NCBI RefSeq assembly: GCF_036321535.1 | Contig: NC_087436.1 | Span: 62,001 to 126,000 of the forward strand | Source of the DNA: Camelus dromedarius | Taxonomy: Eukaryota | Reading direction: 5' to 3' | Length of the DNA stretch: 64,000 nt | Shown here: positions 1 through 64,000 of the stretch, one piece after another | Layout: each line of letters opens with the position of its first letter | Numbering within the stretch: position 1 is the first letter of the stretch | The notes under the pieces: generated by a model | Databases searched by the model: none | What the model saw: only the letters and a program-made list of their open reading frames with translations | Told to the model about the DNA's origin: nothing | Position numbers and translations under genes: made by a program

Positions 1-2619
1 GTTTTGTTTTTTTTTTTAAGTGCTTGTTTCATTGTGGTGTGAATGAATGTTTAAAATTTCTGGATTTTGATGTTTAGAACATGCTGATTTATCAGAACTG
101 TTAAAAACCTGATTGTTGTTTGGTCCTCGTTTGGTGGGGCAACCTATTGAATTCTGTTGTCTGTTAAAGAGGGAAATTCTTCCTCTAGCCTGTAGATCAT
201 TAAGTGAATGGTTTGCAGTGTGCCTTTAAAATTCTTTGAATGCATTGAGCATGTTTGTCCAGTGAATTTTGAATTGACTCATAGTAATGAATTTGTTTGA
301 TTCTGTGGCTTTTGCTCCTCTCCACATGAATTTGAATTCTCTGTTGCATTTTGTATACGTGTTCTTAACAGGGGAAGAAATTTTGCATTTTTTACATAGG
401 TGGGTTTTCCTATCCCCTCTGAATGCCTTCTGTAATTGATACAGCGAAAATCTGTTATTTCAGTGCTTAATTATTTCATAAACTATTTTTTGGCTTAATC
501 AGAAACAATGACAAAGAATGATAATAAAAAACATGAAAACCTTCCTTCCTTTGAAGAATAGAAATGAGGTGGTCAGGCTCACGCGTGCTTTGTACCTGAC
601 ACCCGTACTTTCATGTCATTGTGTATCATGATTCGGAGATGGAGTTGCTTCAGGTTTGTAGATTTTTGTTTTAACATTTGTGTTGAATTCATTCTCTAGG
701 CTGATGTTTCCTGTTGCGTTTGTGGAAAGTGTAGGTGAAGGGAAACAGATGCTACGTTTTGTATTCAGGAGGCCTGAGTTGCTGAAGAGTATAGAGTAGA
801 GGGTGGGCTGAGGAACAGAGTGACACTCCCTCACCTCCAGGCTGAAATTGATGAACGATGAAATCAATTAGGTGTATCGGTATTTATTTGACCAATAGAA
901 GTCAGAGGGCCCAGACTGTCTAGTTATGCGCAATGGAAAGTACTGAATTCACCTGCAGAATTAGGTGATTTACCAAGTAGAAACAGCTTAGAGCAATCAG
1001 AAAAATCAGTTCTATGATGAGATATAAAAAGAATATAATATCTATTATTTCTGAAACTTTTCTATGTTAAGTTGTGTAGAGCTAAAATTAAGTTCCAAGC
1101 ACCAGGAGTTAAGAGTCTGGGTGGTTCTGTGGGATCGTTATTCAGGGATGTGTCTAGACCCTGCTGGAATGGCCGAAGCTGGCAGGAAAAGACGCAGAGG
1201 CAGGATTTGTCATCCTAGGGTGTCCTCCATAATGGTTCCATGTGATAGCCCATGATTGGGTTAACAAATTTAACAGACACCAGACGCATGTCAACCTTAA
1301 GAAGAAAAAGTGTGCTTAGTAACTGCTTTCAAGCAAGCACCTGTGCATCCTCACTCCTGTCTCCTTGCCATAAAAAGCAGAGACAATGCCTTGCTTGCAT
1401 ATTTGAGGTTTTAGATAGCACTCTGTTCATTGCACAGCAATGACCCAGGCCCTCAGCTATAAATGCTGGGCGTGCGTGCTGTTAGATAGTCTATTATCCC
1501 CAAAACACGGACCTGGCTGGACTGGTGGTCTGCTTTGTAATGAATATCTAAAGAATTTATCTTGTTCCCCTCTCCCCATGACTCCCCTAAAGGTAAACTA
1601 AGCCTTTTTACTCATTGTGGATTCTACAATCTCTGTCTCATCCTGTCTTTCCCCAAGTTCCTGTTTACTATCACACAACTGTTAAAGACTATTTTCTTTG
1701 ATTATACACAATAAATATGGGAGGATTTGAGAGGCTCTTGGAGTTGGCTCCCTACTCCCTCTCGCTTTCTTTCCTTTTTCCACAGTCTTGAGTCATTCAT
1801 TCCATGTCGGTAAGACTTCTGCCAGCCAGAACCCACAGTTCCAGGTGAGAAGGATGCAGACTTTATCTCTCCTACCCGAGGGAGAGAGAGAAGAGAATTG
1901 AGATCTGCTCCCCCGTGGTCCCTTCCTGCCCCAGGGCCACTCCAGTTCACCTGCAGCCTTCTGGCCTCTGCTCTCAGGGCCTCTGTCCCAAGACTGACAT
2001 CAGCCTTTTTTTCCCTTGTCAATATTTCCTGTGCCTTTCAGGAGTTGGTCTCTTCTCTGCAATTCCACCCTGGCAGATGTGATGGTGGTCAGCGTGCTGG
2101 TGGGCAGTCATTTGGGGACTCCCAGGAACCATTCTGATTCTCCTGAGTCTCTCATTCGGGGTTACAAAACTGTCGAGAACCGGAGGAAGCCCATTCACGT
2201 GAGGTCAACACAGTATTACATCACTTTCTTTTTATTTTTGAATTTTCAGTGGAGAAATTATTTGTAACAAACTGTTCCAGATTTTCGGCCGCCTGCTTTC
2301 CTCACCACTATTTCCTTGTTGGCTCTGGTGATTGTTTAAAGAACCAGGTTTCTTCTCTGGTCATTTCTAGCAGCTGGGCTTGCCGAATCCTTGATCTGCA
2401 TTTGAAGCAGAATGCTTCTTCGTGATGTCAAACTGATTTTCCTTGTCATGTCTTAATATTTTGTGTACACTCAGTAACTGTTTCAAGTGAAATGCTCTTG
2501 TCCAATTTCGGTTAACTCACATTTGCTGAACTCCTGCTTTCATGCTGAGGGCAGTTTCTTCTTCCTGTAATAAAATTTAGCAATTTGCATTTACTATGGG
2601 AAGGTACTGGCCCGAGGTG

Positions 2620-3740
2620 CTCTCGTTCTTAACAGTTTTAATAACAATTCACCCATTAAAATGTACAGTGGTTTTTACTCTATGCCCAGAATTGTGCATC
2701 CCATTCAATCTTAGAACATTTTCATCCCCCCAACAGGAAGCTCCTTACGCATAAGCAGACATCCCCATCTTCCCCATCCTCCCACAGCCCCAGGGAGCCA
2801 CTTTTCTCTCTCTGTGGGTTTGCCTCTGCTGGAAATTTCATGTAAATCGAGTTACTTCATGTAAGTGGAAGCATCTATTGTGACTGACTTCTTTCACACT
2901 GAGTAACGTTTTCAATATTTGTCCACGTTGTGGCCTGGGTCAGTACTCAATGCTTTGCTATTGCTGAATAATATTCCTCTGTATGGCTGGGCCCCTCTGT
3001 TTACCCATTCATCACGTGATAGGCATTTGTGTTGTTTCTGCTTTTTGGCTGTGATGAGTAATGGCTCCGTGAATATTCCTGTAGGAGTTTTTATGTGAAC
3101 ATTTGTTTTCAGTTCTCTTACGTGTGTGCCCAGGAAGCAAAATTGCCTGGTTATTCAGAAACCAAATGTTCAACTCTCTAAGGACCTGCCAGGCGTTTTT
3201 CCAAAGTGGCCAGGCTGTGTTACATCCTCACCAGCAACGGCTGCGTCCTCTGCATCTTCTGTGTCCTCATTAGTGCTTTTTACTCTTTTTTTGATTATAA
3301 CCTATTGTAGTGAGTGTGAAGCGGTTTCTCCTAGTGGTTTTGACTTGATTTCCCTTACAGCTAATGATATTGAACATCGTTTCGTTGTGCTTATTGGTCA
3401 TTTGTATATTTTCCTTGATAAATGTTTTTCAGATCCTCTATTCATTTTTTAATTGAGTTGCCTTTTTATTGTTGAGTTGTAGGAGGTTATTTTTGTTTTT
3501 GTTTTGTTTTGTTTTTTTTTTTGGTAGATACAAATTCCTTATCAGATAAATGATTTGAAAAAATTTCTGCTGTGTGTTGTTTTTTCACTTTCTGGATGGT
3601 GTCCTTTGAAGCAATGTTTTAAAATTTGATGAACTCCAATTTATCTCTGTTTTCTTTTTCCTTGTCCTTTTTCCTTATCCTCTGTTTTCTTTTTCCTTGT
3701 CCTTTCCTTCAGTTTACCTTGTCCTTTTGGGGTAATATTT
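2620..3740 (-). mobile_element. Old L1 (L1MB-like) 3' fragment
   Basis: Typical antisense L1M 3' UTR/ORF2-end text (acaattcacccattaaaatgtacagtgg; ttgatttcccttacagctaatgatattgaacatc). Boundaries approximate. Confidence 0.8.
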
Positions 3741-3809
3741 AATATCTGAGGTATTTTATTTAAACTTTTATACATAAAATAACTTAATTATTAGGACAGT
3801 TCTAGGAGA

Positions 3810-3960
3810 CGGGTGCTGTTGTTGTCCCCAGTCTATGGATAGGAGACTGGGTTGCAGAAAATTTCACTGACTTATCAGTGTCAAAGCTACCCAGTGCTTT
3901 GGGAGTTCAGACCCTCATGTTTGTCCCCAGCGTCTGTGCTCTTCACCACCATGCTCCACT
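3810..3960 (-). mobile_element. MIR relic
   Basis: Degenerate MIR core (ccccagtctatggataggagactggg ... ctgtgctcttcaccaccatgc). Confidence 0.55.
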
Positions 3961-6900
3961 CCTTCCTGGAATCGTTAATGAAAAAGTCTTTACTTTTTTG
4001 ATTTCTTGTTAGTTTTTGTTTTTCTCATTGGGGCCTCATCTCCTCATTTTCCTTAAAGAGATCAGTGTAGGTTTATTTTAGGTCTCATGTAGGCAGAAGC
4101 ATTGCTATCAGTTAACTTCTTTATTACTCACTCCCCAGTGATGGCTGTTGCTAATTGACCTAATGAAGTCTTGCTTTAGTCTTTCCTTCTCATGACACTA
4201 ACAACAGAGTCATGACTTACAGAATGCTTAAAGAAGAAAGTACTTGATTGATTTTATTTTGCTACCCAATCAAACCAATCAAATAAGAACCCCAGAGTTG
4301 ACACAGACGGTAAGCCCTCCAGAATAGGGTCACTGTCTTCCTTGTGTTTCATTTGTTTGGTCACAGTGTCTGGATAGTGCCTTGCTGTCCAGCAGTTTTG
4401 TTAGGATACAGTGTTCGTGAATCATTGTAAGGACAGAATTTTGACAACAGACTGTGCTGTTCATTTCACGAGGGAAAAGTTAATATAGAAATACTGCTCA
4501 GATCTATTTTAAAATTAAGCTTGGAATTTTGAGAAGAGTTCAAGAAACCATACAAAGATCTTTTTCACTAATTTTAGATCTATCTTAGACACATTATGGT
4601 TACATAGCAGAGTACCTTATCAAGTAGATTTGACGAGAGGTGTGTATTATTGATTATTTGTTTTAGTTGAAATATTCTACCTGGGATAAAATATTCAGTG
4701 CCCATAAATGAACAAATATGTTTGTATTTCTATGCAACATGGGAGCAGACTTCATATGTTTCTATATAATATATATGACTGTGTGTTTTAATCTGTCTTT
4801 CAGTGTTTTTATAGTTTTTCAGCAATGTTGTAACTTTAGAATTCTTCTAAGAAAATCACCCCAGATTCTAGTGCAGTTTGTACTGTGTATCCTGTCTTAT
4901 GCATGGGATTCCACTGTCCCCACAGGGAGGAATTTCCTCTTATATTGAGTTAGTATCAGAGTTAAAGGAACTGTGATTTCTAGGCCTTTGCTCTCCATGT
5001 GTTTGCATTTGGCTGTCAATCGCGATTTTCCCTTTCTTGAGTTTTCATTGTTCAATTAGAATTTTTGAAAATAACTATTAATATGTTGCATCGATCTCCC
5101 TAGAAACTTGATGTGTTTGTGCTTTTCAGTTTTCAATTTATGAAAAATGTAAATACACACTTGTTTTTAAGTAGTCCTTTTTCACTAGATATTTGGTTAC
5201 CTCTTTATAGTTAAAATATTTTTTCCCAATGTATGAATCAGTGTGCATGTTTTAAAAGATACCTTACTTTTTATTTTTCTTATTGTAACAGTTATATTCA
5301 TTGTAGAGAATTTAGAAAATACGGATAAACACATTAATAACTTAAAATGGCCTCTAATCTCACCTAGACATACAGTTGTAAGGTTTGAAATTGAGAATTA
5401 CAAGTCCTCTCACATTGTTCTTCTTTTTCAAGTACGTTTTGGTTACTGAGACCCTCGAATTCCCATATGAATTGTAGCAGCAGCTAGTCAGTTTCTGCAG
5501 AGGAGACCGCAGGGATTGTGATCGAGACCACGTTGAATATACGGATCGTTCTGGGGAGCACTGCCATTCCAAAAGCGCTGTCTTCTGATCCAGCAATGTG
5601 TGTGGTTTGTCCAGGTATTTAGGTATTGTTTAATTTTTTTTTAACAATGCTTTGAGTTTACAGAGTTATTTTACTTTGTTTTTTTTTTTTGCCTTTATAC
5701 TGAGGACAATTGTGCCAGGTACCGGGATCAGAAGTGTATTTGAGCCCCGCCACTTGCTGCCACCATGGTCACTGCGCTCTTGCTTCACCCGCTCTACAAT
5801 CTTGCACAGAATAGGACCTCAGTAACTCTCTCTCTCGAATGATTATATGCTTGTTGGATGATGCTTGAGAGTCCGTGTGATGATTTTTTTCCCCAGCCTT
5901 TCCCCACTTCTTTACTATGCCCTTTCTCTTCCTTTCCTCCAGCCTGGGTTTCAGTTTACCTGTGGCATTGATTTTTCTTGTCTGTAGACACTTCCTTTCA
6001 CTGGTTCACGATAATTTTACATGTGGGCTGTGGAAACTTGCTAGATGTCAAGAAAGAGCCAATCCATTGCATGCTAGTATTTTTAGAGTGCATTATTGTT
6101 TTATCGATTGAAATTAAATCAGGGTGACCCCCTGAGCCCTCCTGTGAGCTGTTTTTGCCATCCTACAGGTGATAATGCTCTGGCTGCTGAATGTGCCCTT
6201 TCCCCAGACTTGGTTTTGGAGTTAAGTCACCATCAGTGGAGCCCTCTCTTTAAAAGATGAAGAAAACATTTGCTCCTTCTCCCTGGTTGGGGACTTGGAT
6301 GAGATGAGGTAACAGATAAAGAATGGAGCCCCACCTCATTCTAACACCCGCTCGTTCCGTTCCTTTCTCCACGGAAAAAGAGTACAATTCAACACTATAA
6401 AGATTGATTGTGAGCAAATGAGATAGACAGGACAACCGATCATTTATTAAATATACTTTCATGCCAGAAACAAATGTATTATTCACACAAAAAGCACACA
6501 AAGCACGGTAGTACCGTGATTACCAACGTGGGTCCGAGTTCGAGTCCTGCTCTGGAGTGACCAGTCCTGTGAGATGGAGAACTGGTAGGTCGGCTTAGCC
6601 TCTCCCGGGCTTGTTTTCTGTCCTGCAGAGATGGGGCTCGCTAGGCGTCCCTCCCCCATAGAGATGCTGTAGGGTGCAAATGATGCGCATGGGCAGCCCG
6701 AGCATAGCTGCTCATTCCTCGTAAGTGAAGGAGAGCATAGCTTTTGTGGTGAAGGCTTTATAACAGCCCCGTGTGGACTTTCAGTGCTCCGAAGGAATGC
6801 CTTGTGATTTGGAGATGGGATTCTCATTTCTGTAAATACCCAAGGATTGTGTAATTGGGCCCTGCTGATTTGAATCTATTCTTTAGAAAGTACATATTGT

Positions 6901-8098
6901 GGATATATTTTTCAAGCATGCATGCTTTTTTCTTTTATCATTTATTGTTCTACCCTCTCTCTTGGTGGGACTTTTCATGGAATCCAGGAAACAGCCCTAA
7001 GCCACCTGCCTCTTCACACGTCTCCGTGGCGGTTTTCTTCCCTGACTAGAAGAGGGTTCTGCATAGGGAATTTTCTTTGTTCCCCTTTTCTTGGAGTCTC
7101 TCTGTCTGTCTGCCCACCTCTCACCTGTCCAACTGTCCATTTCTCTACCCACTCATTCTTCTGACTTGTTCCAAATAGCATTTCAGGCAGCTTACAGAAG
7201 AACAGATACCAAATAAACAGGTGAGATAATGGGACCAAGTTCAGACAGTGAGGCTAGGAGGCGAGCCTGTGTGAGGGTGGCAGGCATGAGAGACACGCGT
7301 CTGCCCTGTGACTTATAAGATCGACAGCAAGAGTGTGCCTGAGGCTCCCAGCAGACACAGGTTAACAGGGTTTGTGGGAGATGCTCACTGGCTGTGAAAT
7401 AAATAAGTGGCTGAGGAGAAGCCCAGCCTTTCCAGCTACTAAGGCTTAGGAGAATATTTTGAGTGTCTTCAACATCAGAGTATTTCATCTTTTCTTTTGT
7501 CAGAGTTCTACATATAGATGGTTACATTCTGTACCTGGAAATTTCTACAAAATTTCTTCCCACTTGAGTCCCATGACTCGGGAATGGGGTGGTTCTGCTC
7601 ATTGACTGGGGTTGGCCAGAAACCAAAAATGACAGCTTCAAAGGAGCCTGGGATTTGTCAGTTATGTTTTGTCAGTACTGTAGAGTTCAAAAAATGCTTT
7701 CACAGTATCTCTCCATCTGAGGCGGCAGCGTGCTCTCTTACCAGCATCAGGAGCTCAGGGCCATGGGATGGTGGGGGCTGACTGCTTTGCCGTCAAGACA
7801 GCTGAGCTAGTCACTGCAGGTTTGATTCTTTTACGTAAGGCCTTTCATGTTCTTTACTTGAATGTTTCAACAGGGAGTTAATTAACTGAGTTAATTAACA
7901 TTTAATAAATATGATTCTTTGTTGAAAAGACAGTTATAGACAGAATATAAGCTCTGAAGCCTTTAAAAACGGTTTCATTACTGAAATTTCAGTAGGGGAG
8001 ATACACAGTTTATCTTATTTATGCCTGTCTTTTAAAGTAACAAAGAAACAAGACAGAAAAGGCAGAGGATTGTTTCTGTTCTTCCTTTCTGCTTGCAG

Positions 8099-8219
8099 GT
8101 GCCCTCACCTCCAGTAGCATCCATCCAGACACCGGAACTGACACTGGCCGTGCTCCGAACTGCCTCAGCCCTGAAGACACAACTGACAAATAGAAGGGGA
8201 CCACGCCCTGTTACAGCAG
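8099..8219 (+). pseudogene. TRAPPC9: TRAPPC9 pseudo-exon 6, upstream unit
   Basis: Acceptor ttcctttctgcttgcag. Reads [39 protein letters not shown] versus recalled TRAPPC9 [41 protein letters not shown]. TAG at 8191-8193, 1 nt short at the 3' end, GT at 8220-8221. Confidence 0.93.
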
Positions 8220-8499
8220 GTGCTCTCACTTTGTGGATCCTTATGTAACTGAGCGGTGTTAATCAGGATTGCCCGTTCTACATTGTGTGGCGCTGCTGCG
8301 GTGTCTCCTAGTTACTTGTTTCTGTAAGTATTCATGTATTATTCCCCACTGAGTGGTACTACACGTCTAAAAATGCTTTTTTCAGATGAAAAATAATGTG
8401 CATTTAATATAATATGTCTGAAAAAAGGGGCAAAAGATTCTATCCTGGTCCCTCTACTCAGAGATAATAATTAACAATTTAACATTTATTTTCTGTTCT

Positions 8500-10820
8500 T
8501 TTCGTTAGTGTGTATCATCTCTGTCATAAAAACCAGTGAGCACTCTGTCCCTGTTTACTGTTCGGAGACCTCCATTTTCCATTCGGCTTATTACATGTTT
8601 TTCTACAATATTCTATCTCCCCTGGCATGATTTTTAAAGACCAGTGTAGCATTCTGTCTTATGGAGGCATGGTCCATTTTACTTCGGACTTAAATAAACT
8701 TTTAAATTCCAAGTGTACTTAACTGAAATACTGAAAAGAGAACTGTGGTGGTACAGGAAGGCCCCTAACTCCCTTCTCATTATTTCCTGAGAGTAAAAGC
8801 TGTTGAAAATTTGGTATATATATTTCATGACCTTTATGCCTATGAGATACATATATATATACACATATGAGAAATCAATATATAGGTGTGTGTATATATG
8901 CTTTATTTAAAAATGAGACCATACTATATGTTTTTCTGCAGCTCGCTTTATTCACTCAGGGGTATATCATGGACGTCCTCCCACTCCAGACTCACCCGGC
9001 CCTTTCAGATAGATTGGAGGGGTCTCCTGATGTGCGGGTGTCGTCTCTTGTCCACGGAAACATTTGGTGCGAGACTGCTGTGGACAAGGCCCTGGACCAC
9101 GGCGAAACGCCGGCTCCCTCAGCGCCCGCAGCTCGCCTTGATTTACCGCATCATTGTCTTGATGGTGGACAGTTAAGTTTTCTCCATTTTCCACTGTCAG
9201 AAAGAATGTTTGAGTTGCATCCTTCTTGTACAGAACTTCCTGTGATCTTGTATGTGTATTCCTTTAGTTAAGGCTTCTGGAAATTTAGTCCCTGGATGTG
9301 ACATTTACATTCATCACAGACTCCTTTCAAGTGACTAGAAATTCCTTCTCCATTGGGGAATGAAAAAATGCACAATTACTTATGTAACCAATTCTCTATC
9401 GCTGGATATGATTTCACTTCAGTTTTTCTTCCCACCTTTGTAAACAGTGCTGTGTAAATGCCCTGATGGGTACATCTTTTTGGACTGATTTTTTTTTCCT
9501 AAAGGAAACGATTCCTAGAAGTGGAGTTGAGTCAGTGTGTATGTACGTTTTTCAGAGCTTACAAATCCATTGATATGTCATCCTCTGAAAAAGTCGCTCA
9601 TGATTTGTTCTCCCACAGATGGACACTAGCTAGATTATCTTAAAAATATTTGCCAATATGATAAGCAAAAGTGCTTTTTCATTGTTTTTTTTTGCATTTG
9701 ATGACCAGTGAAGTTTTGAGCATTTTTCACTCATTAGTCATTTGACTTTTTTAAAATGAATGATTCCTTTTGTCCTTTGCCCACATTTAAGTGAGGGAGC
9801 TTCTTGTTGCTTTGTGACAGCTTTTTGTATGTTATGAAAATTAACTTCGTGAATTCATCAACATGTATCACAGAGCTTTTTCTTGTCATTTCTTTCCTTT
9901 CATTTTGTTCAGGAAGTTTTCTGATTTTTGTTGTGGCTCAAACTATTCTTAGGATAGTAAATGTCTTCCTTATGGGTTTTATCTTTGACATTATTCTTAG
10001 AAATACTCTCTTATAATGGAATAAATCTCTTCTGTAGGTATTTTTTAATCTCTAAGATGGAGATTATAATAGTACATGTTATAGTGAGGAGAAGTTGAGT
10101 TAATAAGAGCAAAGAGTTGTATTTGCTGTTACTAGTACTTTTTAATATTTACATCGCTATCTGCAATTTATCTTGTGGTCATTATGACAGGAGTAGAATT
10201 TATTCTTTCCAGGTGATTCTCTGTCCCAGGACAATTATCGAATTCATAATTTTCTCTTTGATTTGAAATCCCACCTGTACAAAATACTTACATACACTAG
10301 AGTCTTTTTTGAGCTCATGGTTCCCTTCTGTCAATCTCCTTTCCTTACTCCAGCACCATATCTTACATGTTGTAAAAATTTATTTAATAACTGGCAGTCT
10401 GATTTTTTTTGATTCTTTTCTTCCATCCCAAATTTTCTTGTCAAGTATTATGACTTTATTATTCCTGAAGAATTCCAAAATATTTTGTTCAAGTTAAAAA
10501 AAATCAGATTGGAATTTTCATGGGATTTTTTAGTAAGTTTTGAATTATTCTTAGGAGAACTTACATCTTTACAAAACTGCTTTTCTCCATGCAATATGTT
10601 TATGTCTCTACATTCATACCTCTTACTTTAACCCTCAGTACAGTCCTGAAGTTTCTCCATTTAGAATATGGGCATTATTTTTGAATTTATTCCAGATTAT
10701 TGTTTATGTTTTTGTTAATTTTGTAAGTGAGAATTTTTTGCTATTATATTTTTAAATGTTTAAAACTGACATTTAGAAAGGAAGATTCGGTTTGTCAATA
10801 CTCACTTTGTAACTTGTCAT
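8500..10820 (-). mobile_element. Fragmented ancient L1 (L1ME-like) relics
   Basis: T-rich stretches with degenerate antisense L1 motifs (tttgcatttgatgaccagtgaagttttgagcatttttcac; ggagaacttacatctttacaaaactg). Poorly resolved. Confidence 0.5.
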
Positions 10821-14997: not shown

Positions 14998-15121
14998 TGT
15001 AAGAATTCCGGTGACTGAGTTAGAAGCATGCTTCCAAGCTGTCCGTGTCCTCGGCATCCAGAAGCGGAGCCTGGAAGCTTCCGAATTTCTCCAGAATGCA
15101 GTCTACATTCACCTTCGGCAG
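14998..15121 (+). pseudogene. TRAPPC9: TRAPPC9 pseudo-exon 7, upstream unit (last TRAPPC9 exon detected in the unit)
   Basis: Acceptor ccttttccccctgcag and donor CAG|gtgagt both intact. Reads CKNS-(2-nt deletion)[37 protein letters not shown] versus recalled [42 protein letters not shown]. Confidence 0.95.
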
Positions 15122-15719
15122 GTGAGTGTATGTCCTTACACAAGTGGAGGAATTTCTGCAGTTTTCCTGGAACTTACTCACCACTAGTCCATCTGATTTT
15201 TCTGTGCTAGGATTCAGTATGGCCTGCTAAAAAATCTGGAGTCAGATTTTGAAACCCTGATGAAGAGGATTATTTATTTTATTTCACTATATGATAATCT
15301 TTTACTTTCAAAATTCAGAATTTTTGGTTCTTTCAGGCATTTTTGGGGGGGTTCGCAAAACAAATTTGCTCTTACCGTCTTTGCGACCTGTTGCTTTGTG
15401 CCTCTCACCTGTCTTCTGTCACTTGTGAGAGGCAGTTCCATTTGTGACCCTGTCCGTGTTGTTCATGTTATACAACATAAAGTCTGTAAAAGTACAGTCC
15501 CTTTTACTCCGAAGACATTCCACAAATAACTCCTTAAATCTGGGTGTTGTTTTAAGAAGACAGAATCATTAGAACATGTAATTGCAGGTTGCTAGTGCAA
15601 AATCCCCAAATCAATAGTCTAGCTCAACATCTAAAATCTTTCTAATCTACCTTGGATTTGTATGGATAAGTGAAGCAATTTGCTAAGAATTGAACACCAG
15701 GGTTAGAATACAGGATGGT

Positions 15720-22120: not shown

Positions 22121-22233
22121 TTTTGGGGGGGTAGGTAATTAGGTGTATTTATCTGTTAGAGGAGGCCCTGGCGGTTGAACCCGGGACCCCGTGCACGCTA
22201 AGAACACGCTCTACCACTGAGCTCTACCACCAC
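22121..22233 (-). mobile_element. Vic-1-type camelid SINE
   Basis: Reverse strand reads GGTAGAGCTCAGTGGTAGAGCGTG...CCCGGGTTCAACC (A and B boxes) followed by the AAATACACCTAATTACC tail. Confidence 0.88.
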
Positions 22234-36659: not shown

Positions 36660-36777
36660 GGAGGGTAATTAGGTTTATTTATTTGTTTCATTTTTTAAAA
36701 TGAGGTACTGGTGTTTGAACCCAGGACCTCGTACATGCTAAGCACGTGCTCTACCACTGAACTGTACCCTTCTCCCC
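36660..36777 (-). mobile_element. Vic-1-type camelid SINE
   Basis: gggtaattaggtttatttattt ... gaggtactggtgtttgaacccaggacctcgtacatgctaagcacgtgctctaccactga. Confidence 0.92.
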
Positions 36778-37208
36778 AAGGCAAGTTTTCTTATCCATTA
36801 TTCTGAAGCTTAGGAGTTCAAATAAATTGGATAGAAAACCAGATCTTTTGATCCCACTGTAGTCCTTTTCTTTATATTCTGCTGAAGGAGGTTGGGGAAA
36901 GCACTTCCTTTGTTCACTTCCTTATTCAGCATTTTTCAGCAGTGACTTTGCATCAGGGCCTTGGTAGGTGCTTGGAAACAGAAAACAAGAAATGACCCTT
37001 CTCTGCAGGGCAGGAAGCCTAGACCAAAAGCTGGGTAATGTGATCCGAGCTACGGTAGCCATTTGAAGACTCTGAGGACAAACTGTACCTCCGGATTTAC
37101 TTGAGCTTCCCTTGCCTTCTGGTTGGTACACACCAGGTCATCGCAACCCAGATGGACCTGCAGCCCACAGTACAGTATGTACCTCGATCTCCTCTCCCCT
37201 CTCGTCAG

Positions 37209-37780: not shown

Positions 37781-38119
37781 GTAAGTTTACCTGGAGGCCA
37801 GTCCACCCTGGCTGTGTGCCGGGGTTCTTCCCTACATCCAGAAAGTGATTAGCAAGGAAGAGGACTCTCTTGTAGCCAAGGGTGGAGGGAGGTGCAGCCC
37901 GCCGCTTTACAGACATTTAAAAGTGAATCCGCCTTTGTTTCAGAGAGATCCTTTTAGGGTTATTGTGGACACTTACTGCAGCTTTTCAGCCAGGACCCTG
38001 GTGGGACCCCAGGAGTTGCTGACCAATAGAGTAGCCACAGCCACTGATGCTAGGAGAGCTGGGGAGGAGGCTGCTCTGAGCTGAGATTTGCTGTAGGTCA
38101 AATGAACATCAGACGCTGA

Positions 38120-38342
38120 GACTTGTCTAGTAAAAAGAATGTAAACTATCTTATCACTTCCTATATTGATTACATGTCAAAATGATAGTATTTTACATAC
38201 AGTAGGTTAAGATTTGTTCTTAAAATCATTTTCTAGTATTTGTTTTTTGTTTGTTGGTTTGTTTCTTTGTTTACCGTTTTAAATGTGGCAACTGGGAAAC
38301 TTTCTTTACATGGCTCTCATTTCATTTATGTTGGGCAGCCTG
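38120..38342. mobile_element. MER33/MER3-like hAT-Charlie relic
   Basis: aaaaagaatgtaaactatct ... tatattgattacatgtcaaaatgatagtatttt ... aatgtggcaactggg. Confidence 0.75.
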
Positions 38343-46026: not shown

Positions 46027-46147
46027 TCATCACCAGGGCACATGTGGGGTTTGTGCCTGCAGGCTGGAATGCTGCTGGACTCCCTGATCCATCACCGTTA
46101 TGTCCTGGAGCTGCTCCGGTCAGTGAATGATTTTCTGTGGCTTCTAG
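46027..46147 (+). pseudogene. TRAPPC9: TRAPPC9 pseudo-exon 3 remnant
   Basis: Reads [32 protein letters not shown] versus recalled [32 protein letters not shown]. Donor G|gtaatg at 46148. The 5' part is partly deleted and the acceptor reads ttttccgg. Confidence 0.93.
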
Positions 46148-51830: not shown

Positions 51831-53212
51831 AGATGGGCTTTGGGTGTTTAGTGTTATCTGCATCCCTGAATCTTTGTACCTCTGTGCATATTTTAGCCCA
51901 GAAAGGACAGGGAAAAGAGAGTTACACAGATGCTCATAGTCATGTATTGGCCACTGTCCACAGAGAGTGAATCGTGATTGGCGTTATTTGTTTTCCAGGC
52001 AGTAGATCAGTTCTTATAACAGAAATTTAGTCCATTGAGTTAATCTAGAAACCCTTCCTGCTCTGTTTCTGTCCATGCTTGCCATGTGACTGCCTCCCCG
52101 TGATTAGGCCATTGAGAAAATGTACTCATGGTTGAACTCTGATATTTCAGTCTGGTTCATAGTTTCACGTCTTCTGTTACATTAATAAGTTAAGTTTCTG
52201 GTTTTCTTTCATCAGTGTGTCATGAGTTTGGTTAATGTGAAACAAGTCCATGGGAGCCCAGGGGTGATGACGGTATAATTTCTGAGCACGTTGTGGCAAT
52301 TCTACCCTTGCAGACCTGGCGGGAGTATGTCCGCCTTCCTCACTGATTTCCCCCAACAGCAGGGTCCTCTCCCACCCCCGCATGTGAGGCTGGGAGCTCT
52401 CTGAGTAGGCCAGTCAGAGGCCAAGTCCACCAATCAGAAAATGATGAAGTATCTGGAAGTGGTTTTAATAGAAGAAAAGGGTTTCCAGATAGTACAATGG
52501 GCTGTTCGAGTCCGTTTGGTGAAAAGCTGTCCAGTGTCTGTGGTTGAGGTGCTTCTTTGCTGTTGAAAAGCCTGGATTAGATGAAGGGATTTTAAAAAGC
52601 AGAAAGGAGTGATTTCAGGTGGTACGTCCACACCGGTGAGAAGTGATGGATGACCACCTGTGTGAGGCATAGACAGGGTCTTACAAACTTCTTAAAATAA
52701 CTTTAAAAGCTCTTCCATCTGAGTGCATTTCATATGGGGTCCAGTTCTTCACTGGTCACCCTGAGAGGGCAAATAATTGATGATGGCAGAAAGGACACGG
52801 AGGCATCAAAAAGGTCTCAGTCATTTTCCCTTTTTAAAGGATGTGGCAAAGTGTAATATATTTGAGCTGGTTTTTCACTGAACAATTTTTAGTGTTTTCT
52901 GGGACTCCCCAATGCCCCAAGGTTCCATGCAGCTGGGTGTCCCCTCAGAGCATGTCTGTCAGAGCTTGCCCTGGGTTGACGTGGTGTCACGGGGAGCAGG
53001 ACGGTCAGAGTCCCCGGATCTTCCGAGCTCCGTCTCCTCATCCTCAGTGCCGGGTTTCTCATCCGTGTCTACTTAGGGTTGTTGAGAATCACACGTGATG
53101 GTTCAGGTGTGATTTGTGATAGTCTCTGTGATTGGCATATAGTCAATATTTGAAAGAAACACTTTTTTTTTAGTATAATTGTAGCATATAGATTGCAGTG
53201 CTTTTTAGTCTG

Positions 53213-53349
53213 CTTTTTTTTATATAAGTTTATTCTTATTTTTAAATATGCACTTATTTTTATTTATTTTTTTGGAGGTACTGGGGACTGAATCCAGGAC
53301 ATTGTTCATGCTAAGCAGGTGCTCTACAACTGAGTAATACACACCCTCC
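53213..53349 (-). mobile_element. Vic-1-type camelid SINE
   Basis: ggaggtactggggactgaatccaggac ... catgctaagcaggtgctctacaactgag; imperfect TSD around gtctgc. Confidence 0.85.
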
Positions 53350-54237: not shown

Positions 54238-56869
54238 GTACATGATCTATGTGCTTAGTTTCTTTGTTTTTTTTTTTTTTTTAAGTGCTTGTTTCATTGT
54301 GGTGTGAATGAATGTTTAAAATTTCTGGATTTTGATCTTTAGAACATGCTGATTTATCAGAGCTGTTAAAAACCTGATTGTTCTTTGGTCCTTGTTTGTT
54401 GGGGCACCCTATTGATTTCTGTTGTCTGTTAAAGCAGGAAATGCTTCCTCTAGCCTGCAGATCATAAAGTGAATGGTTTGCAGTGTGCCTTTAAAATTAT
54501 TTGAATACATTGAGCATGTTTGTCCATTGAATACTGAATTAACTCATTCTGTTGACTTTGCTTTCGTTCTGTGGCTTTTGCACCTCTCCACAAGAATTTG
54601 AATTCTCTGTTGCATTTTGTATACGTGTTCTTAACAGGGGAAGAAATTTTGCATTTTTTACAGAGGTGGCTTTTCCTATCCCCTCTGAATGCCTTCTATA
54701 ATTGATACAATAGTAACCTGTTATTGCAGTGCATAATTCTTTCATAAACTATTTTTTGGCATATTCAGAAACAATGACAAAGAATGATAATAAAAAATAT
54801 GAAAACCTTCCTTCCTTTGAAGAATAGAAATCAGGTGGTCAGGCTCACGCATGCTTTGTGCCTGACACACTTACTCTCATGTCATTGTGTATCATGATTC
54901 GGAGATGGAGTTGCTCCAGGTTTATAGATTTTTGTTTTAACATTTGTGTTGAATTCTTTCTCCAGGCTGATGTTTCCTGTTGGTTTTGTGGAAAGAGTAG
55001 AAGGGAAACAAATCCTTTGTTTTGTTTTCAGGAGGCCTGAGTTGATGAGAAAAGTGTTGAGGGTGGGCTGAGGAAAAGAGTGACACTCCCTCTCCTCCCG
55101 GCTGAAATTGATAAACAAAGAAATCAATTAAGTGTATCGGTATTTGACCAATAGAAGTTAGAGAGCCCAAAATGGCTAGATATTCCCAATGGAAATTACT
55201 GAATTCACCTGCAGAATTATCTGCTTTACCAAGTAGAAGCAACTTAGAGCAATCAGAAAAATCAGTAATATGATGAGATATAAAAGGAATATTATACCTT
55301 TTATTTCTGAAACTTTTCTACGGTAAGTTGTGTAGAGCTAAAATTAAGTTTCAAGCACCAGGAGTTAAGAGTGTGGGTAGTTCTGTAGGATCGTTATTCA
55401 CGGATGTACCTAGACCCTGCTAGAGTGGCTGAAGATGGCAGGAAAAGACCCAGAGGCAGGATTTGTCATCTTAGGGTGTCCTCCATAATGGTTCCATGTG
55501 GGAGCCCATGATTGGTTTAACAAATTGTAACACACTCCAGCCGCCTGTGAACTTTAAGAAGAAAAATATATGCTTAAAAACTGCTTTACAAGCAAGTGCC
55601 TGTACATCCTCACTCCAGTCTCCTTGCATTAAAAAGCAGAGACAATGCTTTGCTTGCATAGTTGAGGTTTTAGATAGCACTCTGCTGGTTGCAAAGCAAG
55701 GACCGAGGCCCTCAGGTATAAACGCTGAGCTTGTGTGCTGTTAGATAGTCTATGATCCACAGAACAAGGACCTGGCTGGTCTGGTGGTCTGCTTTGTAAT
55801 TCACATGTCTAAAAATGTATCTTGTTCCCCTCACTCCATTACTTCCCTAAAGATACACTAATCCTTTGTACTCATTGTGTATTCTACAATCTCTGCTTCA
55901 TACTGTCTTTCCCGAAGTTCCTATTACTATCACACAATTGTTAATGAATTTTTCCTTTGATTATACACAATAAATAAGGGTGCAATTGAGAGGCTTGTGG
56001 AGTTGGCTCCCTACTCCCTCTCGATTTATTGACTTTTTCCACAGAGACTTGAATAATCATTCCATGTCGGTAAGACTTCTGCCAGCCAACCCACAGTTCC
56101 AGGTGAGAAGGATGCAGGTTTACCACTCCTACCCGATGGAGAGAGAGGAGAGAATTGAGATATGCTCCCCCATGGTCGCTTCCTGTCCCACGGCCACTGC
56201 AGTTCACCTGCAGCCTTCTGGCCTCTGCTCTCAGGGCCTCTGTCCCAGGACTGACTGCAGCCTTTTCTTCCCTTGTCAACATTTCCTGTGCCTTTCAGAA
56301 GTTGGTCTCTTCTCTGCAATTCAACCCTGGCAGATGTGATGGTGGTCAGCGTGCTGGTGGGCAGTCCTTTGGGGACTCCCAGGAGACATGCTGATTCTCC
56401 TGAGTCTCTCAATCGGGGTTACAGAACAGTCGAGCACCGAAGGAAGCCCATTCACGTGAGGTCAACAGAGCATTTTATCACTTTCATTTTATTTTTAAAT
56501 TTTCAGTGGAGAAATTATTTGTAGCAAACTGTTCCAGATATTCGGCCGCCTGCTTTCCTCACCACCATTTCCTTGTTGGCTCTGGTGCTTGTTTTAAGAA
56601 CCAGGTTTCTTCTCTGGTCATTTGTAGCAGCTGGGCTTGCTGAATCCTTGATCTGCATTTGAAGAAGAATGCTTCTTCCTGATGTGAAACTGATTTTCCT
56701 ATTTCTGAATATTTCGTGTACACTCAGCAACTGTTTCAAGTGAAATGCTCTTGTCCAATTTTGGTTAACTCACATTTGCTGATCTCCTACTTTCATGCTG
56801 AGGGCAGTTTCTTCTTCCTCTAATAAAAGTTAGCAATTTGCATTTACTAGGGAAGGTACTGGCCCGAGT

Positions 56870-57910
56870 TGCTTTTTTTCTTACCAGTTTTAATACAATT
56901 CACCCATTTAAATATACAGTCGTTTTTACTCTATGCCCAGAATTGTGCATCCCATTTAATCTTAGAATATTTTCATTCCCCCAACAGGAAGCCCCGTATG
57001 CATAAGCAGTCATTCCCATCTTCCCCATCCTCCCCCAGCCCCAAGGAGCCACTCTTCTCTCTCTGTGGATTTGCCTGTGCTGGACATTTCATTTAAATCG
57101 AGTCACTTCATGTAGGTGGAACCGTCTATTGTGACTGACTTATTTAACACTGAGTAACGTTATCAAAGTTTGTCCACGTTGTGGCCTGGGTCAGTACTCT
57201 ATGCTTTGCTATTGCTGACTAATATTCCACTGTATGGCTGGGCCCCACTGTTTACCCATTCATCAGGTGATAGGCAATTGGGTTGTTTCTGCTTTTTGGC
57301 TGTGATGAGTAGTGTCGCCATGAATATTCCTGTAGGAGTTTTTATGTGGACATTTGTTTTCAGTTCTCTTACGTTTGTGCCCAGACAGCAGAATTGCTGG
57401 GTCATTCAGAAACCAAATGTTCAACTCTCTGAGGACCTGCCAGGCTGTTTTCCAAAGTGGCCACGCTGTGTTACGTCCTCACCAGCAAGGGCTGCGCGCT
57501 CCGCTTCCTCTGTGTCCTTATTAGTGCTTGTTACTCTTTTTTTTATTATAACCTATTGTTGTGAGTGTGAAGCGGTTTCTCCTAGTGGGTTTGACTTGAT
57601 TTCCCTTACAGCTAATGATATTGAACATCGTTTCATTGTGCTTATTGGCCATTTGTATATTTTCCTTGAAAAATACCATTTCAGATCCTTTATTCACCTT
57701 TTAATTGAGTTGCCTTTTTATTGTTGATTTGTAGGAGGTACTTTATTTTTTATAGATACAAATTCCTTATCAGATAAATGATTTGAAAAAAATTTCTTCT
57801 GTGTGTTGTTTTTTCACTTTCTGGATGGTGCCCTTTGAAGCAAAGTTTTAAATTTTGATGAACTCCAATTTATCTCTGTTTTCTTTGTTCCTTGTGCTTT
57901 TGGGGTATTA
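56870..57910 (-). mobile_element. Old L1 (L1MB-like) 3' fragment, paralogue of 2620-3740
   Basis: Same element at the same position in copy B. Confidence 0.8.
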
Positions 57911-60900
57911 TTTAAAATCTGAGGTATTTTATTTAAAATTTTATATATAAAATAACTTAATTCGTAGGACCGTTCTAGGAGATGGGTGCGGTTGTTGTCC
58001 CCAGTGTATGGATAGAAGACTGAGATGCAGAAAATTTCTCTGAAATATCAGTTTCACAGCTACCCAGTGCTGTGGGAGTTCAGGCACTCATGTTCGTCCC
58101 AAACATCTGTGATCCTCACCACCATGCTCCACTACTGCCTGGAATCGTTAATGAAAACGTCTTTCCTTTTTTGATTCCTTGTTTGTTTTCTCGGGGACCT
58201 CATCTCCTCATTTTCCTTTCGGATATCAGTATAGATTTATTTTAGGTCTCATGTAGGCAGAAGCATTTCTATCAGTTAACTTCTTTATTACTCACTCTCC
58301 AGTGATGATTGTTGCTAGTTGACCTAATCAAGTCATGCTTAAGTCTTTCCTTCTCATGACACTAAAAACAGTCATGACTTACAGAATGCTAAAAGCAGAA
58401 AGTACTTGATTGATTTTATTTTGCTACCCAATCAAACCAATCAAATAAAAACCCGCTGTTGACACAGATTATAAGCCCTCCAGGTTAGGGTCACTGTCTT
58501 CCTTGTGTTTCATTTATTTGGTCACAGTGTCTGGATAGTGCCTTGCTGTTCAGCAGTTTTGTTAGGAAATGGTGCTCGTGAATCATTGTAAGGACAGAAT
58601 TTTGACAACAGACTGTGTTGTTCATTTCACAAGGGAAAAGATAATATAGAAATACTGCTCAGATCTATTTGAAAATTAAGCTTGGAATTTTGAGAACAAT
58701 TCAAGAAACCATACAAAGATTTTTCACTAATTTTAGATCTATCTTAAACACATTATGGTTACATAGCAGAGTAACTTATCAAGTAGATTTGTCAAGAGGA
58801 GTGTATTATTGATTATTTGTTTTAGTTGAAATATTCTACCTGGGATAAAATATTCAGTGCCCATAAATGAACAAATATGTTTGTATTTCTATGCAACATG
58901 GGAGCAGACTACATATGTTTCAATATAATATATATGACTGTGTGTTTTAATCTGTCTGTCAGTGTTTTTATAGTTTTTCAGCAATGTTGTAACATTAGAA
59001 TTCTAAGAAATTCACTCCCGATACTACTGCAGTTTGTACTGTGTATCCTGTCTTATGTATGGGATTCCACTGTCCCCTAAGTGAGGAATTTCCTCTCCTA
59101 TTGAGTTAGAAGCAGATTTAAAGGAACTGTGATTTCTAGGCCTTTGCTCTCCATGTGTTTGCACTTGGGTGTCAATCACAATTTTCCCTTTCTTGAGTTT
59201 TCATTGTTCAATTAGAATTTTTGAAAATAACTATTAATATGTTTCACTAGTCTCCCTAGAAACTTGATGTTTTTGTGCTTTTCAGTTTTCAATTTATGAA
59301 AATTATAAATGCACACTTGTTTTTAAGTAGTCCTTTTTCACTAGATATTTGTTTACCTCTTTATAGTTAAAATAATTTTTTTCCTAATGAATGAATCACT
59401 GTGCATGTTTTACAAGATATCTTACTTTTTATTTTTCTTATTCTAACAGGTATATTCATTGTACAGAATTTTGAAAATAAGGATAAACCCAGTAATAACT
59501 TAAAAATGGCCTCTAATCTCACCTGGAGATACAGTTGTAAGGTTTGAAATTGAGAATTACAAGTCCTCTCATGTTTTTCTTCTTTTTCAAGTACGTTTTG
59601 GTTACTGAGTCCCTCAAATTCCCATATGAATAGTAGCAGCAGCTAGTCAGTTACTGCAGAGGAGCCCGCTGGGATTGTGATCGAGACCACGTTGAGTATA
59701 CAGATCGCTCTGGGGAGCACTGCCATCCCAAGAGCTCTGTCATCTGATCCAGGAATGTGCGTGGTGTGTCTGTCCAGGTATTTAGGTCTTCTTTAATTTT
59801 TTTCAACCATGCGTAGAGTTTACATAGTATTATTTTACCTTATTTTTTTGCCTTTATACTGAGTACAATTGTGCAAGGTACTAGGATCAGAATTGTATTA
59901 TAGCCCCGCCACTTGCTGCCACCATGGACGCTGCACTCTTGCTTTGCCCTGTGTAAAATCTTGCACAAAATAGGACCTAAGTAACTCTCTCTTGAATGAA
60001 TGATTATATGATTGCTGGATGATGCTGGAGAGTCCTTGTGATGATGTCTTTTTCCCAGACTTTCCCCTCTTCTTAACTATACCTTTTCTCTTCCTTTCCT
60101 CCAACCTGGGTTTCAGCCTGCCTGTGGCATTGATTTTCCCTGAGTGTGGACTCTTCCTTTCACTAGTTCACGATAATGTTTCATGCGGGCTATGAAAACT
60201 TGCTAGATGTCAAGAAATAGCAAATTCACTGCATGCTAGTATTTTTAGTCTGTGGTATTATATTATCCATTGAAATTAAATCAGGCTGACCCCCTGAGCC
60301 CTCCCCTGATCTCTTTTCTCCTTCCTACGGGTGATACTTCTCTGGTTGCTGTCTGTGCCCTTCCCCCAGACTTGGTTTTGGAGTTGAGTAAGTCACCATC
60401 AGTGGAGCTCTCTCTTTAAAGATGAAGAGAACATTTGCTCCTTCTTCCTGGTTGGGGACTGGATGAGATGTGGTAACAGATAAAGAATGGAGCCCCATCT
60501 CATTCTGACCCTCGCTCTTTCCGTTCCTTTCTCCAGGGGAAAAGAGTACAATTCAAAAATATAAAGATTGTGAGCTAATGAGATAGACAAGACAACCGAA
60601 CATTTGTTAAATATCCTTTCATGCCGGACACAAATGTATTATACACACAAAAAGCACACAAATCACGGTAGTACTGCGGTTACAAACGTGGGTCCGAGTT
60701 CGAGTCCTGCTCTGGAGTGACCAGTCCTGTGAGATGGAGAACTGGTAGGTCGGCTTAGCCTCTCCTGGACTTGTTTTCTGTCCTGCAGAGATGGGGCTCG
60801 CTAGGCGTCCCTCTCCCGTAGAGGTGCTGTGGGGTGTAAATGGCGCGCGTCGGCAGCCCGAGCACAGCTGCTCATTCCTCGTAAGGGCAGGATAGCATCG

Positions 60901-62253
60901 CTTTTGCGGTGACAGCTTTATGACCGTCCCGTGTAGACTCTTAGTGCTCCGAAGGGATGCCTTGTGGTTTGGAGATGGGATTCTCACTTCTGTAAATACC
61001 CAAGGATTGTGTTATTGGGCCGTGCTGATTTGAATCTATTCTTTAGAAAGTACATATTGTAGATATATTTTTCAAGCATGCATGCTTTTTTCTTTTATTA
61101 TTTATAGTTCTACCCTCTCATCTCTTGGTGTGACTTTTCATGGAATCCAGGAAACAGTCCTAAGCCACCTGCCTCTTCACACTTCTCCGTGGTGGTTTTC
61201 TTCCCTGACTAGAAGAGGGTTCTGCATAGGAAATTTTCTTTGTTCCCCTTTCCTTGGAGTCACTCTGTCTCCCCAACTCTCACCTGTACATCTGTCCATT
61301 TCTCTACCCACTGATTCTTCTGACTTGTTCCAAAAAGCATTTCAGGCAGCTTACAGAAGAACAGATACCAAATAAACAGGTGAGAAAATGGGGCCAAGTT
61401 CAGACAGTGAGGCTAGGAGGTGAGCCTGTGTGAGAGTTGCAGGCGTGAGACACACGCCTCAGCCCTGTGACTTATAAGATCGACAGCAACAGTGTGCCTG
61501 AGGCTCCCAGCAGACACAGGGAAACAGGGTTTGTGGGAGATGCTCACTGGCTGTGAAATAAATAAGTGGCTTAGGAGATGCCCAGCCTTTCCAGCTACTA
61601 AGGCTTAGGAGAATATTTTGAGTTTCTTCCAAAATCAGAGTATTGCATCTTTTCTTTTTTCAGAGTTCTATGTATAGTTGGTTACATTCTATACCTGGAA
61701 ATTTCTCCAAAACTGCTTCCCACTTGAGTCCCATGGCTCGGGAATGGGGTGGTTCTGCTCATTGACGGGTGTAGGCCAGAAACAGAAAATGACAGCCTCA
61801 AAGGAGCCTGGGATTTCTCAGATATGTTTTGTCAGTGCTGTAGATTTCAGAAAACTCTTTCACCGTTTCTCTCCATCTGAGGTGGCAGCGTGCTCTCTTA
61901 GCAGCATCAGGAGCTCAGGGCCAAGGGATGGTGGGGGCTGACTGCACTGCTATCAAGACAGCTGTGCCAGTCACTGCAGGCGTGGTGATTTTACATAGTG
62001 CATTTCATGTTCTTTAATAGGTTTCAACAGGTAGTTAATTAGCTGAGTTAATTAACATTTAAGAAATATGATGTTTTGTTGAAAAGACAGTTATAGGCAG
62101 AATATAAGTTGTGAACACTTGAAAAACGGTTTCATTACTGAAATTTTAGTAGGGAAGATTTAGTTTATCTTATTTACACCTCTCTTCAAAAGTAACAAAG
62201 AAACAAGACAGAAAAAGCAGAGGATGATTTCTGTTCTTCCTCTCGGCTTGCAG

Positions 62254-62374
62254 GTGCCCTCACCTCCAGTGGCATCCATCCAGACACCAGCACTGACACT
62301 GGCCGTGCTCAGAACTGCCTCAGCCCTGAAGACACAACTGACAAATAGAAGGGGGCTACGCCCTATGACAGCAG
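62254..62374 (+). pseudogene. TRAPPC9: TRAPPC9 pseudo-exon 6, downstream unit
   Basis: Reads [42 protein letters not shown] at 62346-62348; acceptor intact; donor GT changed to AT at 62375. Confidence 0.93.
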
Positions 62375-64000
62375 ATGCTCTCACTTTGTGGGTCCTTATG
62401 TAACTGCGCGGTGTTATTCAGGATCGCCCGTTCTACACTGTGTGACGCTGCTGCCGTGTCTCCTAGTTATTTCTGTAAGTACTAGTGTAATTTTTTCAAT
62501 GTGTGGTACTAGACATCTAAAAATGCTTTTTTCAGATGAAAAATAATGTGTATTTAATATAATAAGTCTGAAAAAAGCGACAAAAGTTTCTATCCTGGTC
62601 CCACTACTCAGAGATAATAATTAACACTTTAACATCTATTTTCTGTTCTTTTCATCAGTGTGTATTACGTCTGTCATAAAAACCAGCGAGCACTCTGTGC
62701 CTCTTTACTGTGTGGAGACCTCCATTTTCCATTCGGCTTATTACACATTTTTCTACACTATTCTCTCTCCCCTGGCATGATTTTTAATGACCAGTATAGC
62801 ATTCTGTCTTGTAGAGGCATCGTCCATTTTACTTCGGACTTAAATAAACTTTTAAATTCCAAGTATATTTAACTGAAATACTGAAAAGAGAACTGTGGTG
62901 GTACCGAAAGGCCCCTACATCCCTTCCCCTTTTTTTCCTGAGAGTAAAAACTGCTGACAATGTGGTGTATATATTTCATGACCTTTATGCCTGTCATATA
63001 TATATACACATACATACATGTATATGAGAAATCTATGTATATGTGTGTGTATATATGCTTTATTGAAAAATAAGGCCATACTATATGTTTTGTGCAGCTC
63101 GGTTTATTCACTGAGGTGTATATCATAGACGTCCTCCCACTCCAGACTCATCCGGTCCTTTCAGATAGAGTAGAGGGGTCTCCTGATGTGCAGTAGATTT
63201 GGTCTCTTGTGTAAGGACACCTTTGGTGGGAGAGTAATGTGGACAAGGCCTTGGACCACGCCAAAACGCCTGCCCCTTAGTGCCCACAGCTCGCCTTGAT
63301 TTACCGCATCATTGTCTTGATGGTGGATACTTAAGTTTTCTCCATTTTCCACTGTCAGAAAGGGTGTTTGACTGGCGTCCTTCTTGTACAAACATTCCTG
63401 TGATCTTGTATGAGTATTCCTTTAGTTAAGGTTTCTGGGAATTTAGTCCCTGGATGTGACAATTACATACATCACAGGATCCTTTCAAGTGACTCTAGAA
63501 ATTCCTTCTCCTGCGGGGAATGAAAAGATGTAGAATAACTTATGTAACCAATTCTCTATCGCTGGATATGATTTCACTTCAGCTTTTCTTCCCACCATTG
63601 TAAAAAGTGCTGTGTAAATGCTCTGATGAGTACATCTTTTTGAACTGATTTTTTTTCTAAACGAAATGATTCCTAAAATGGAGTTCAGTCTGTGTGTACA
63701 CACATTTTTCAGAGTTTACATATCCATTGACACGTCGTCCTCCAAAAAGATCGCTCAGTTTGTTCTCTCAAAGATGGACACTACCTAGAATATTTTTTAA
63801 AAACATTTGCCAATATGATGAGCAAAATTGCTTTTTCATTGTTTTAGTTTGCACTTGATGACCAGTGAGGTATTGAGCATTTTTCACTCATTAGCCATCT
63901 GACTTTTAAAAGGTGAATCATCCCTTTTGTCCTTTGCACACATTTAAGTGAGGGAGCTTCTTGTTGCTTTGTGACAGCTCTTTGTATGTTATGAACATTA

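Follow-up and report, generated by a model that had tools for sequence, protein, structure and literature searches.

Tandem units from the 5′ end of TRAPPC9 in the dromedary as probable members of an old camelid segmental-duplication family

A tandem repeat carrying pieces of TRAPPC9

The DNA analyzed here, referred to as the window, is a stretch of 64,000 nucleotides of the Camelus dromedarius genome (contig NC_087436.1, positions 62,001 to 126,000 of the forward strand) that contains a long direct repeat with pieces of the gene TRAPPC9. In all probability the repeat belongs to an old camelid-wide segmental-duplication family seeded by the 5′ end of TRAPPC9, standing in tandem at this locus and now made up of decaying pseudogenes that are probably transcribed. 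A tandem unit built from the 5′ end of TRAPPC9 had been proposed in an initial annotation of the same DNA; beyond that proposal, the exons have decayed into pseudo-exons, divergence between the copies is about 10% and the family is dispersed in both Old and New World camelids.

A self-megablast of the window returned two collinear high-scoring segment pairs (HSPs) matching positions 1–3671 with 54266–57901 (89.57% over 3681 columns) and 3717–9843 with 57890–64000 (89.57% over 6162 columns), and gave no further self-match of at least 300 bp. This confirmed the statement of the initial annotation that the first 9.8 kb recur 54.2 kb later. From start to end, the offset between the two copies falls from 54,265 to 54,157 bp. 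Copy 1 (1–9843, + strand; 89.6% identical to 54266–64000) is the tail of one unit and is truncated by the window start; copy 2 (54266–64000, + strand) is the same part of the next unit and is truncated by the window end. As copy 1 begins and copy 2 ends exactly with the window, the repeat is open at both ends and shows no duplication boundary. The layout is as expected from a tandem period of about 54.2 kb, with about 1.2 units in view.

Segmental duplications are by working definition at least 1 kb long, at least 90% identical and not transposons. The visible length is 9.8 kb with both ends open, and the identity falls on the threshold, being 89.6% when gaps are counted and 90.7% without gaps in a MAFFT global alignment of the two copies (8791 matches, 903 mismatches and a largest internal indel of at most 56 bp). 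The differences between the copies bear the marks of ordinary decay, 141 of the 903 lying in CpG context and only 70 CpGs being common to the copies from totals of 140 and 131. In addition, the copies resemble different loci of Camelus bactrianus, as shown for a non-TRAPPC9-coding exon used by paralogous gene models at 59587–59784 (+ strand) in copy 2, which shares 98% identity with the C. bactrianus protein P0008 and 95% with P0001, whereas its copy 1 counterpart at 5428–5610 shares only 84–85% with the same two proteins. These different identities to different loci indicate two distinct natural paralogues, and the divergence of the copies appears natural on the evidence of both CpG decay and copy-specific matches.

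Decayed TRAPPC9 exons within the unit

Full-length TRAPPC9 from Ursus (P0030, 1147 amino acids (aa)) was used as tblastn query against the window and gave six significant pieces, all on the + strand, with E values of 1e-8 to 2e-52 and 50–82% identity to true TRAPPC9. The exons named in the initial annotation are thus derived from TRAPPC9. The order along the + strand is aa 296–336, aa 342–380, a CpG island, aa 1–195, aa 208–242 and again aa 296–336, so that the promoter through the aa 342–380 exon lie in one orientation within a 54.2-kb period, in the head-to-tail arrangement claimed previously. The exon order given at that time (6, 7, promoter, 2, 3, 5, 6) stood with regard to succession and strand but not with regard to “exon 5”: for aa 243–295, only chance-level matches and nothing at E<6 were obtained anywhere in the window by tblastn. 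The exon numbers themselves agree only with the placement of the codon of aa 377 of this TRAPPC9 isoform in human reference exon 7. The same tblastn search gave no TRAPPC9 match between 46.2 and 62.2 kb and nothing at E<6 in the window for TRAPPC9 beyond aa 380.

The aa 1–195 piece includes the start codon and occupies 37219–37781 (+ strand). Its first part, aa 1–90 at 37219–37485, shares 68% identity with P0030 and contains a stop; its second part, aa 94–195 at 37482–37781, shares 50%, lies in another frame and has an out-of-frame middle. The stop follows codon 36, and a copy-specific one-base frameshift near 37485 stands beside a double frameshift common to the whole family. The best family matches to this piece are P0001 from C. 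bactrianus (93.5% over 108 aa) and P0189 from C. dromedarius (100% over 52 aa). The aa 208–242 piece at 46039–46143 (+ strand; 71% identity, E 3e-10) has a GTAATG donor just downstream, and the best-kept piece, aa 342–380 at 15011–15127 (+ strand; 82%, E 1e-12), retains an open frame between a pyrimidine tract with CAG acceptor and a CAG|GTGAGT donor. The aa 296–336 piece occurs twice, at 8098–8220 in copy 1 (+ strand; 58.5%, E 1e-8) and at 62253–62375 in copy 2 (+ strand; 65.9%, E 2e-10), with an in-frame stop in each. In the copy 1 piece the stop stands at a TRAPPC9 Tyr position and both the acceptor AG and the GT donor are kept; in the copy 2 piece the donor GT has mutated to AT and the splice donor is lost. 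Since both copies carry the same stop, it is older than the duplication that created these two units.

A functional TRAPPC9 gene was therefore rejected, given the stops in 37219–37485, 8098–8220 and 62253–62375, the frame changes within 37219–37781 and the presence of only aa 1–195, 208–242, 296–336 and 342–380 of a protein of ~1,100–1,200 aa. A processed pseudogene (retrocopy) was rejected as well, the pieces extending across ~37 kb, having splice signals and being preceded by a CpG island. Like the parent gene, which encodes a TRAPPII subunit of the Pfam PF08626 family, the window has introns and an upstream CpG island, and its pieces keep the succession of the gene on a single strand; it differs from the parent in holding only the 5′ part, in its stops and frameshifts, in the 50–82% identity and in giving no Pfam match. 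The true TRAPPC9 N-termini of Ursus, Sus and Homo are nearly identical to one another in alignment, unlike the pieces in the window. Comparison of the two units gave 91.6% identity in the blocks that serve paralogues as exons and 90.6% elsewhere (Fisher p 0.26; with 1.3 kb of sequence the test is weak). No exon constraint is detectable, and the units of this window now drift neutrally.

The Pfam screen covered 396 + strand stop-to-stop open reading frames (ORFs) of at least 40 aa and 113 − strand ORFs of at least 70 aa, leaving out 319 − strand ORFs of 40–69 aa, and gave no TRAPPC9 match among them, a false negative. Neither the ORFs of the window nor the family proteins, intact members included, matched any Pfam entry even at E≤10. 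In a control, true TRAPPC9 matched PF08626 best at aa 360–751, a region that barely covers the part present in the window, which accounts for the pieces being missed. A codon-usage scan did bring up the + strand segments at ~37.2–37.8 kb and 62.2 kb, which are TRAPPC9-like. The same screen argues against a transposable element, as no reverse-transcriptase, gag, env or transposase domain was found in the 396 + and 113 − strand ORFs, and the unit consists of host-gene exons and introns; since Pfam is blind to the decayed TRAPPC9 pieces, this negative result is weaker than it appears.

A TRAPPC9-like family in camelids

Of 47 candidates in a protein search with the ORF at 37470–37781, 20 proteins passed E≤1e-3 and 20/20 were from camelids, with LOC141578013 from C. 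bactrianus as best match (97% according to the search table). A further search, with the 191-aa paralogue P0007 as query, yielded 68 matches at E≤1e-5 out of 113 candidates, and these too were all (68/68) from camelids. The camelid lineage proposed in the initial annotation was in this way recovered from both queries. The family assembled from these searches comprises 73 short proteins that carry the annotation “TRAPPC9-like” or uncharacterized, distributed over Vicugna pacos (35), C. dromedarius (22), C. bactrianus (13) and Camelus ferus (3), the species labels having been assigned by hand from source names. All but one (72/73) have an HSP of at least 40 aa on the window at 37.1–38.1 kb. A search from one family protein also gave 700 full-length TRAPPC9 proteins, of which the 120 listed came from many mammals and included no camelid row. 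Among the matches listed (88/88 rows), the family thus appears lineage-specific to camelids. A metagenome scan for more exon-2 DNA gave 428 pattern matches and 0 relatives.

The family proteins are encoded on contigs of widely differing size, with six sizes in C. bactrianus (113.8, 164.1, 136.6, 105.4, 53.4 and 47.3 Mb) and about eighteen in V. pacos, which indicates that the family lies on many chromosomes or scaffolds and is not restricted to one array. At the same time, several distinct loci share a contig size: LOC141578004, LOC141578007 and LOC141578013 of C. bactrianus (113,810,372), the five dromedary models P0002, P0146, P0187, P0189 and P0190 (1,473,704) and five V. pacos models (78,532,025). 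The gene models of P0006, P0012 and P0018 from alpaca and P0016 from wild camel span one unit into the start-codon exon of the next, and these unit-joining models in camel and alpaca indicate that the head-to-tail arrangement is a property of the family in both tribes. The V. pacos protein P0020 includes a TRAPPC9 stretch after aa 380 that is absent from the window unit, so some copies reach further into the gene.

One mutated founder and the age of the units

When 22 family rows were aligned to the true TRAPPC9 N-termini of three species (bear, pig and human), the members covering the region were seen to share a one-residue deletion and a four-residue deletion, in camels and alpaca alike, together with a stretch of ~32 residues in another frame bounded by two compensating frameshifts. 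Many substitutions are also common to the family rows. Lesions shared by all aligned members covering the stretch show descent from one already mutated founder copy, and their presence in camels and alpaca makes the founder older than the camel–llama split, nothing further following from them. In the corresponding tree, the true TRAPPC9 sequences were set apart as a clade (support 100/100) by a branch of 0.4 changes per site. Resolution among the family members was poor, with 7 of 17 inner branches open and the three alpaca rows not grouped.

The two copies in the window are separated by a Kimura two-parameter (K2P) distance of 0.0996, and at this divergence of ~10% their duplication is old. 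Under assumed neutral rates of 1.0–2.2e-9 per site per year, the split of the units is dated to ~23–50 million years ago. With the date of the split of the two camelid tribes taken from general knowledge, this age is compatible with an origin before or around that split.

The CpG island and transcription of the units

The window has a single CpG island, at 32401–33000, located 4.2 kb upstream of the aa 1 piece and promoter-like in composition (GC 0.69–0.73, observed/expected 0.57–0.73, 48 CpGs in 600 bp). An exon-1-like region at 31876–32551 (+ strand) was matched in tblastn by the first coding exons of up to 11 of the 73 family proteins. Between 21% and 43% of sampled 31-mers of 30001–40000 were present in six RNA runs, and since paralogues at 10% divergence share few 31-mers, most of these words are peculiar to this unit or its orthologues. 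The base counts of the + strand (T 20289 against A 16369, G 14394 against C 12948) show an excess of T over A and of G over C, as expected for the sense strand of long-transcribed DNA. Taken together, the word shares and the skew suggest that the units are transcribed.

The skew of T over A, seen in most of the window, is gone at 28001–32000 just upstream of the CpG island (AT skew ~0 to +0.04). This stretch could be ancestrally untranscribed DNA from upstream of the TRAPPC9 promoter, and as such could hint at the unit junction, for which a position between 15.1 and 31.9 kb of the window would be expected.

Proposed origin of the family

In the origin favored here, the seed would have been a segment of TRAPPC9 reaching from the CpG-island promoter through the start-codon exon and those after it to the exon of aa 342–380. 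The founder copy, which already had the deletions and the compensated double frameshift, would have been multiplied in tandem by unequal crossing-over and would have spread to other chromosomes by duplicative transposition, both multiplication and spread taking place before or near the time when Old and New World camelids separated. The units in view now drift neutrally, with stops, frameshifts and one lost splice donor. The retained promoter may still drive + strand transcripts, and the units may act as transcribed pseudogenes or long non-coding RNA (lncRNA) genes, not as TRAPPC9. They are probably non-coding.

Several points weigh against this origin or parts of it. The ~1.2 units in view include neither a boundary nor a junction, and the length of the array at the locus is an extrapolation; more than two units there would have indirect support only, from the equal-sized contigs of distinct loci and the unit-joining models. 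A shared chromosome, in turn, stands for equal contig sizes in the search tables, and the count of chromosomes may be inflated by the presence of several assemblies per species. The family tree cannot place the expansion before or after the Camelini–Lamini split. The support for transcription consists of shares of 31-mers in contigs, so that carry-over of DNA would be conceivable. A protein product is possible for some copies, P0004, P0005 and P0007 keeping an open frame of ~190 aa. Finally, we cannot explain the excess of transversions between the two copies, with 418 transitions against 485 transversions and a ratio of 0.86 (340 against 422 outside CpG context). This is far below the value usual in mammals and also far below those of 1.78 for human segmental duplications and 2.06 for unique DNA given in PMC10172114. 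An in-window control from six other repeat pairs found by blastn (1003 columns) was too small to be informative.

Alternative explanations

The copies could represent a new protein-coding family of ~190-aa TRAPPC9 N-terminal proteins in which the double frameshift created a novel stretch of 32 aa; the retained promoter would express them and selection would keep at least some copies. P0004, P0005 and P0007 come from both camels and alpaca and can be read across the entire start-codon exon without interruption. In addition, one frameshift offsets the other, a CpG island can still be recognized and RNA runs contain words of 30001–40000. However, the window’s own start-codon copy has the stop after codon 36 and the extra frameshift, both aa 296–336 pieces carry a stop, exon blocks are not better conserved than the rest (p 0.26), and no Pfam domain was found even in intact members. 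The aa identity between paralogues, ~50–84%, is moreover near the ~80% obtained as a rough estimate for ~10% neutral DNA divergence. As annotation lists only open-frame copies, a few open ones among dozens are expected by chance, and a coding family is considered quite unlikely.

Another possibility is a simple two-copy duplication at this locus, with the TRAPPC9-like proteins elsewhere derived from unrelated dispersed copies. Just two partial copies are visible in the window, as this explanation would have it, but neither shows a boundary before it leaves the window, the contig size of the best match is common to three distinct loci and another size to five dromedary models, and gene models of other camelids join consecutive units. 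It is therefore judged very improbable.

An error of assembly, be it a false duplication, a haplotype left uncollapsed or a chimaera of reads from paralogues, could account for the odd 418:485 ratio through consensus errors in a hard-to-assemble repeat but is scarcely credible in view of a divergence of 9.3%, far in excess of haplotype difference, the CpG-specific decay, the matches of the copies to different loci in the assembly of another species (95–98% against 84–85%) and the presence of 52–65% of 30001–40000 words in 14 DNA runs from four organisms, although this last share does not test copy 2, as 30001–40000 is the unique part of the unit.

Comparison with known duplication families and implications

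Primate core duplicons such as NPIP and NBPF are lineage-specific families of gene fragments spread by segmental duplication. The camelid family resembles them in that a gene segment with its promoter has apparently been multiplied in one lineage, in tandem and on many chromosomes, giving short “-like” genes. It differs from them in showing no sign of positive selection or new function (in the weak test on 1.3 kb) and in having copies that are ~10% diverged, below the usual 90% cut-off when gaps are counted. The TRAPPC9 5′ segment could conceivably be the camelid counterpart of a core duplicon, transcribed in the germline, spreading in tandem and over many chromosomes since before the camel–llama split and with some copies encoding a protein of ~190 aa whose middle part arose through the compensated double frameshift, but this we regard as unlikely. 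Were it true, the family could shape the architecture of camelid chromosomes and supply a protein interfering with or modifying TRAPPII trafficking.

Pseudogene-rich repetitive blocks (NEK10-like, ATF5, FMN2-like and others) have been described on alpaca chromosomes 11, 17 and 36 (PMC13751797). These blocks are similar to the TRAPPC9-like family in their many fragmented gene copies and repeat-rich camelid DNA, and their authors infer segmental duplication and decay; they differ in being reported absent from camel assemblies, whereas the TRAPPC9-like family is present in camels and alpaca. Search listings for that article gave 0 occurrences of TRAPPC9. The present family is thus a large gene-derived duplication family common to Old and New World camelids, in contrast to the alpaca-only blocks (PMC13751797), and provides a dated marker (~10% divergence) for the building of repeats in camelid genomes.

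The initial annotation knew of no description of such an array. Indeed, no account of the structure, origin or distribution of the camelid TRAPPC9-like family was found in the literature searched, supplements not being covered, and by title there was none on duplication for TRAPPC9 and camel, none on camelids for TRAPPC9 and segmental duplication, and none at all for TRAPPC9 and alpaca. The family is nevertheless not entirely without record, NCBI using the name “TRAPPC9-like” and one published table containing a row for it. That row gives 0, 4 and 8 copies in the domestic Bactrian, Arabian and wild Bactrian annotations, respectively, from orthogroup clustering, and calls the family “melanin-correlated” (PMC10568864). 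It represents the same annotated family; the available text of that article does not deal with its structure or origin, nor with the frameshift, the tandem units or its occurrence in alpaca.

In practical terms, read mapping, calling of single-nucleotide polymorphisms (SNPs) and orthology tables for camelid TRAPPC9 must allow for dozens of paralogues. Two dromedary association studies have TRAPPC9 as a candidate at chr14:31.08–31.37 Mb, and within chr14:30.8–31.4 Mb it is listed beside POFUT2, DDX27, CSE1L, ARFGEF1 and SUPT20H (PMC10357240, PMC8027435). This mix of genes suggests a duplication-rich mosaic region with TRAPPC9-like copies. POFUT2, DDX27, CSE1L, ARFGEF1 and SUPT20H are presumably genes of different human chromosomes, and for this reason the “TRAPPC9” of dromedary chr14 may be one of the family copies and not the real gene.

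Other features of the window

In addition to the exon described above, another block matched by paralogous gene models lies in copy 2 at 61106–61339 (+ strand), with a copy 1 counterpart at 6958–7083. On the − strand, only the blocks 52318–52410 and 52907–53062 were matched by a family protein, one protein each, and these probably reflect non-TRAPPC9 or repeat-derived parts of the gene model.

Recognizable young interspersed repeats seem scarce, as blastn within the 64 kb gave only six other repeat pairs and none of the scanned ORFs had a reverse-transcriptase match. Tandem Repeats Finder reported microsatellites only. The sole Rfam match was a transfer RNA (tRNA)-like sequence at 36704–36768 on the − strand (29.5 bits against a gathering score of 29), and ARAGORN called no tRNA in the window, this position included. 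The sequence is probably a remnant of a tRNA-derived short interspersed nuclear element (SINE), and stretches resembling it are also found at 22134–22228 and 53254–53333.

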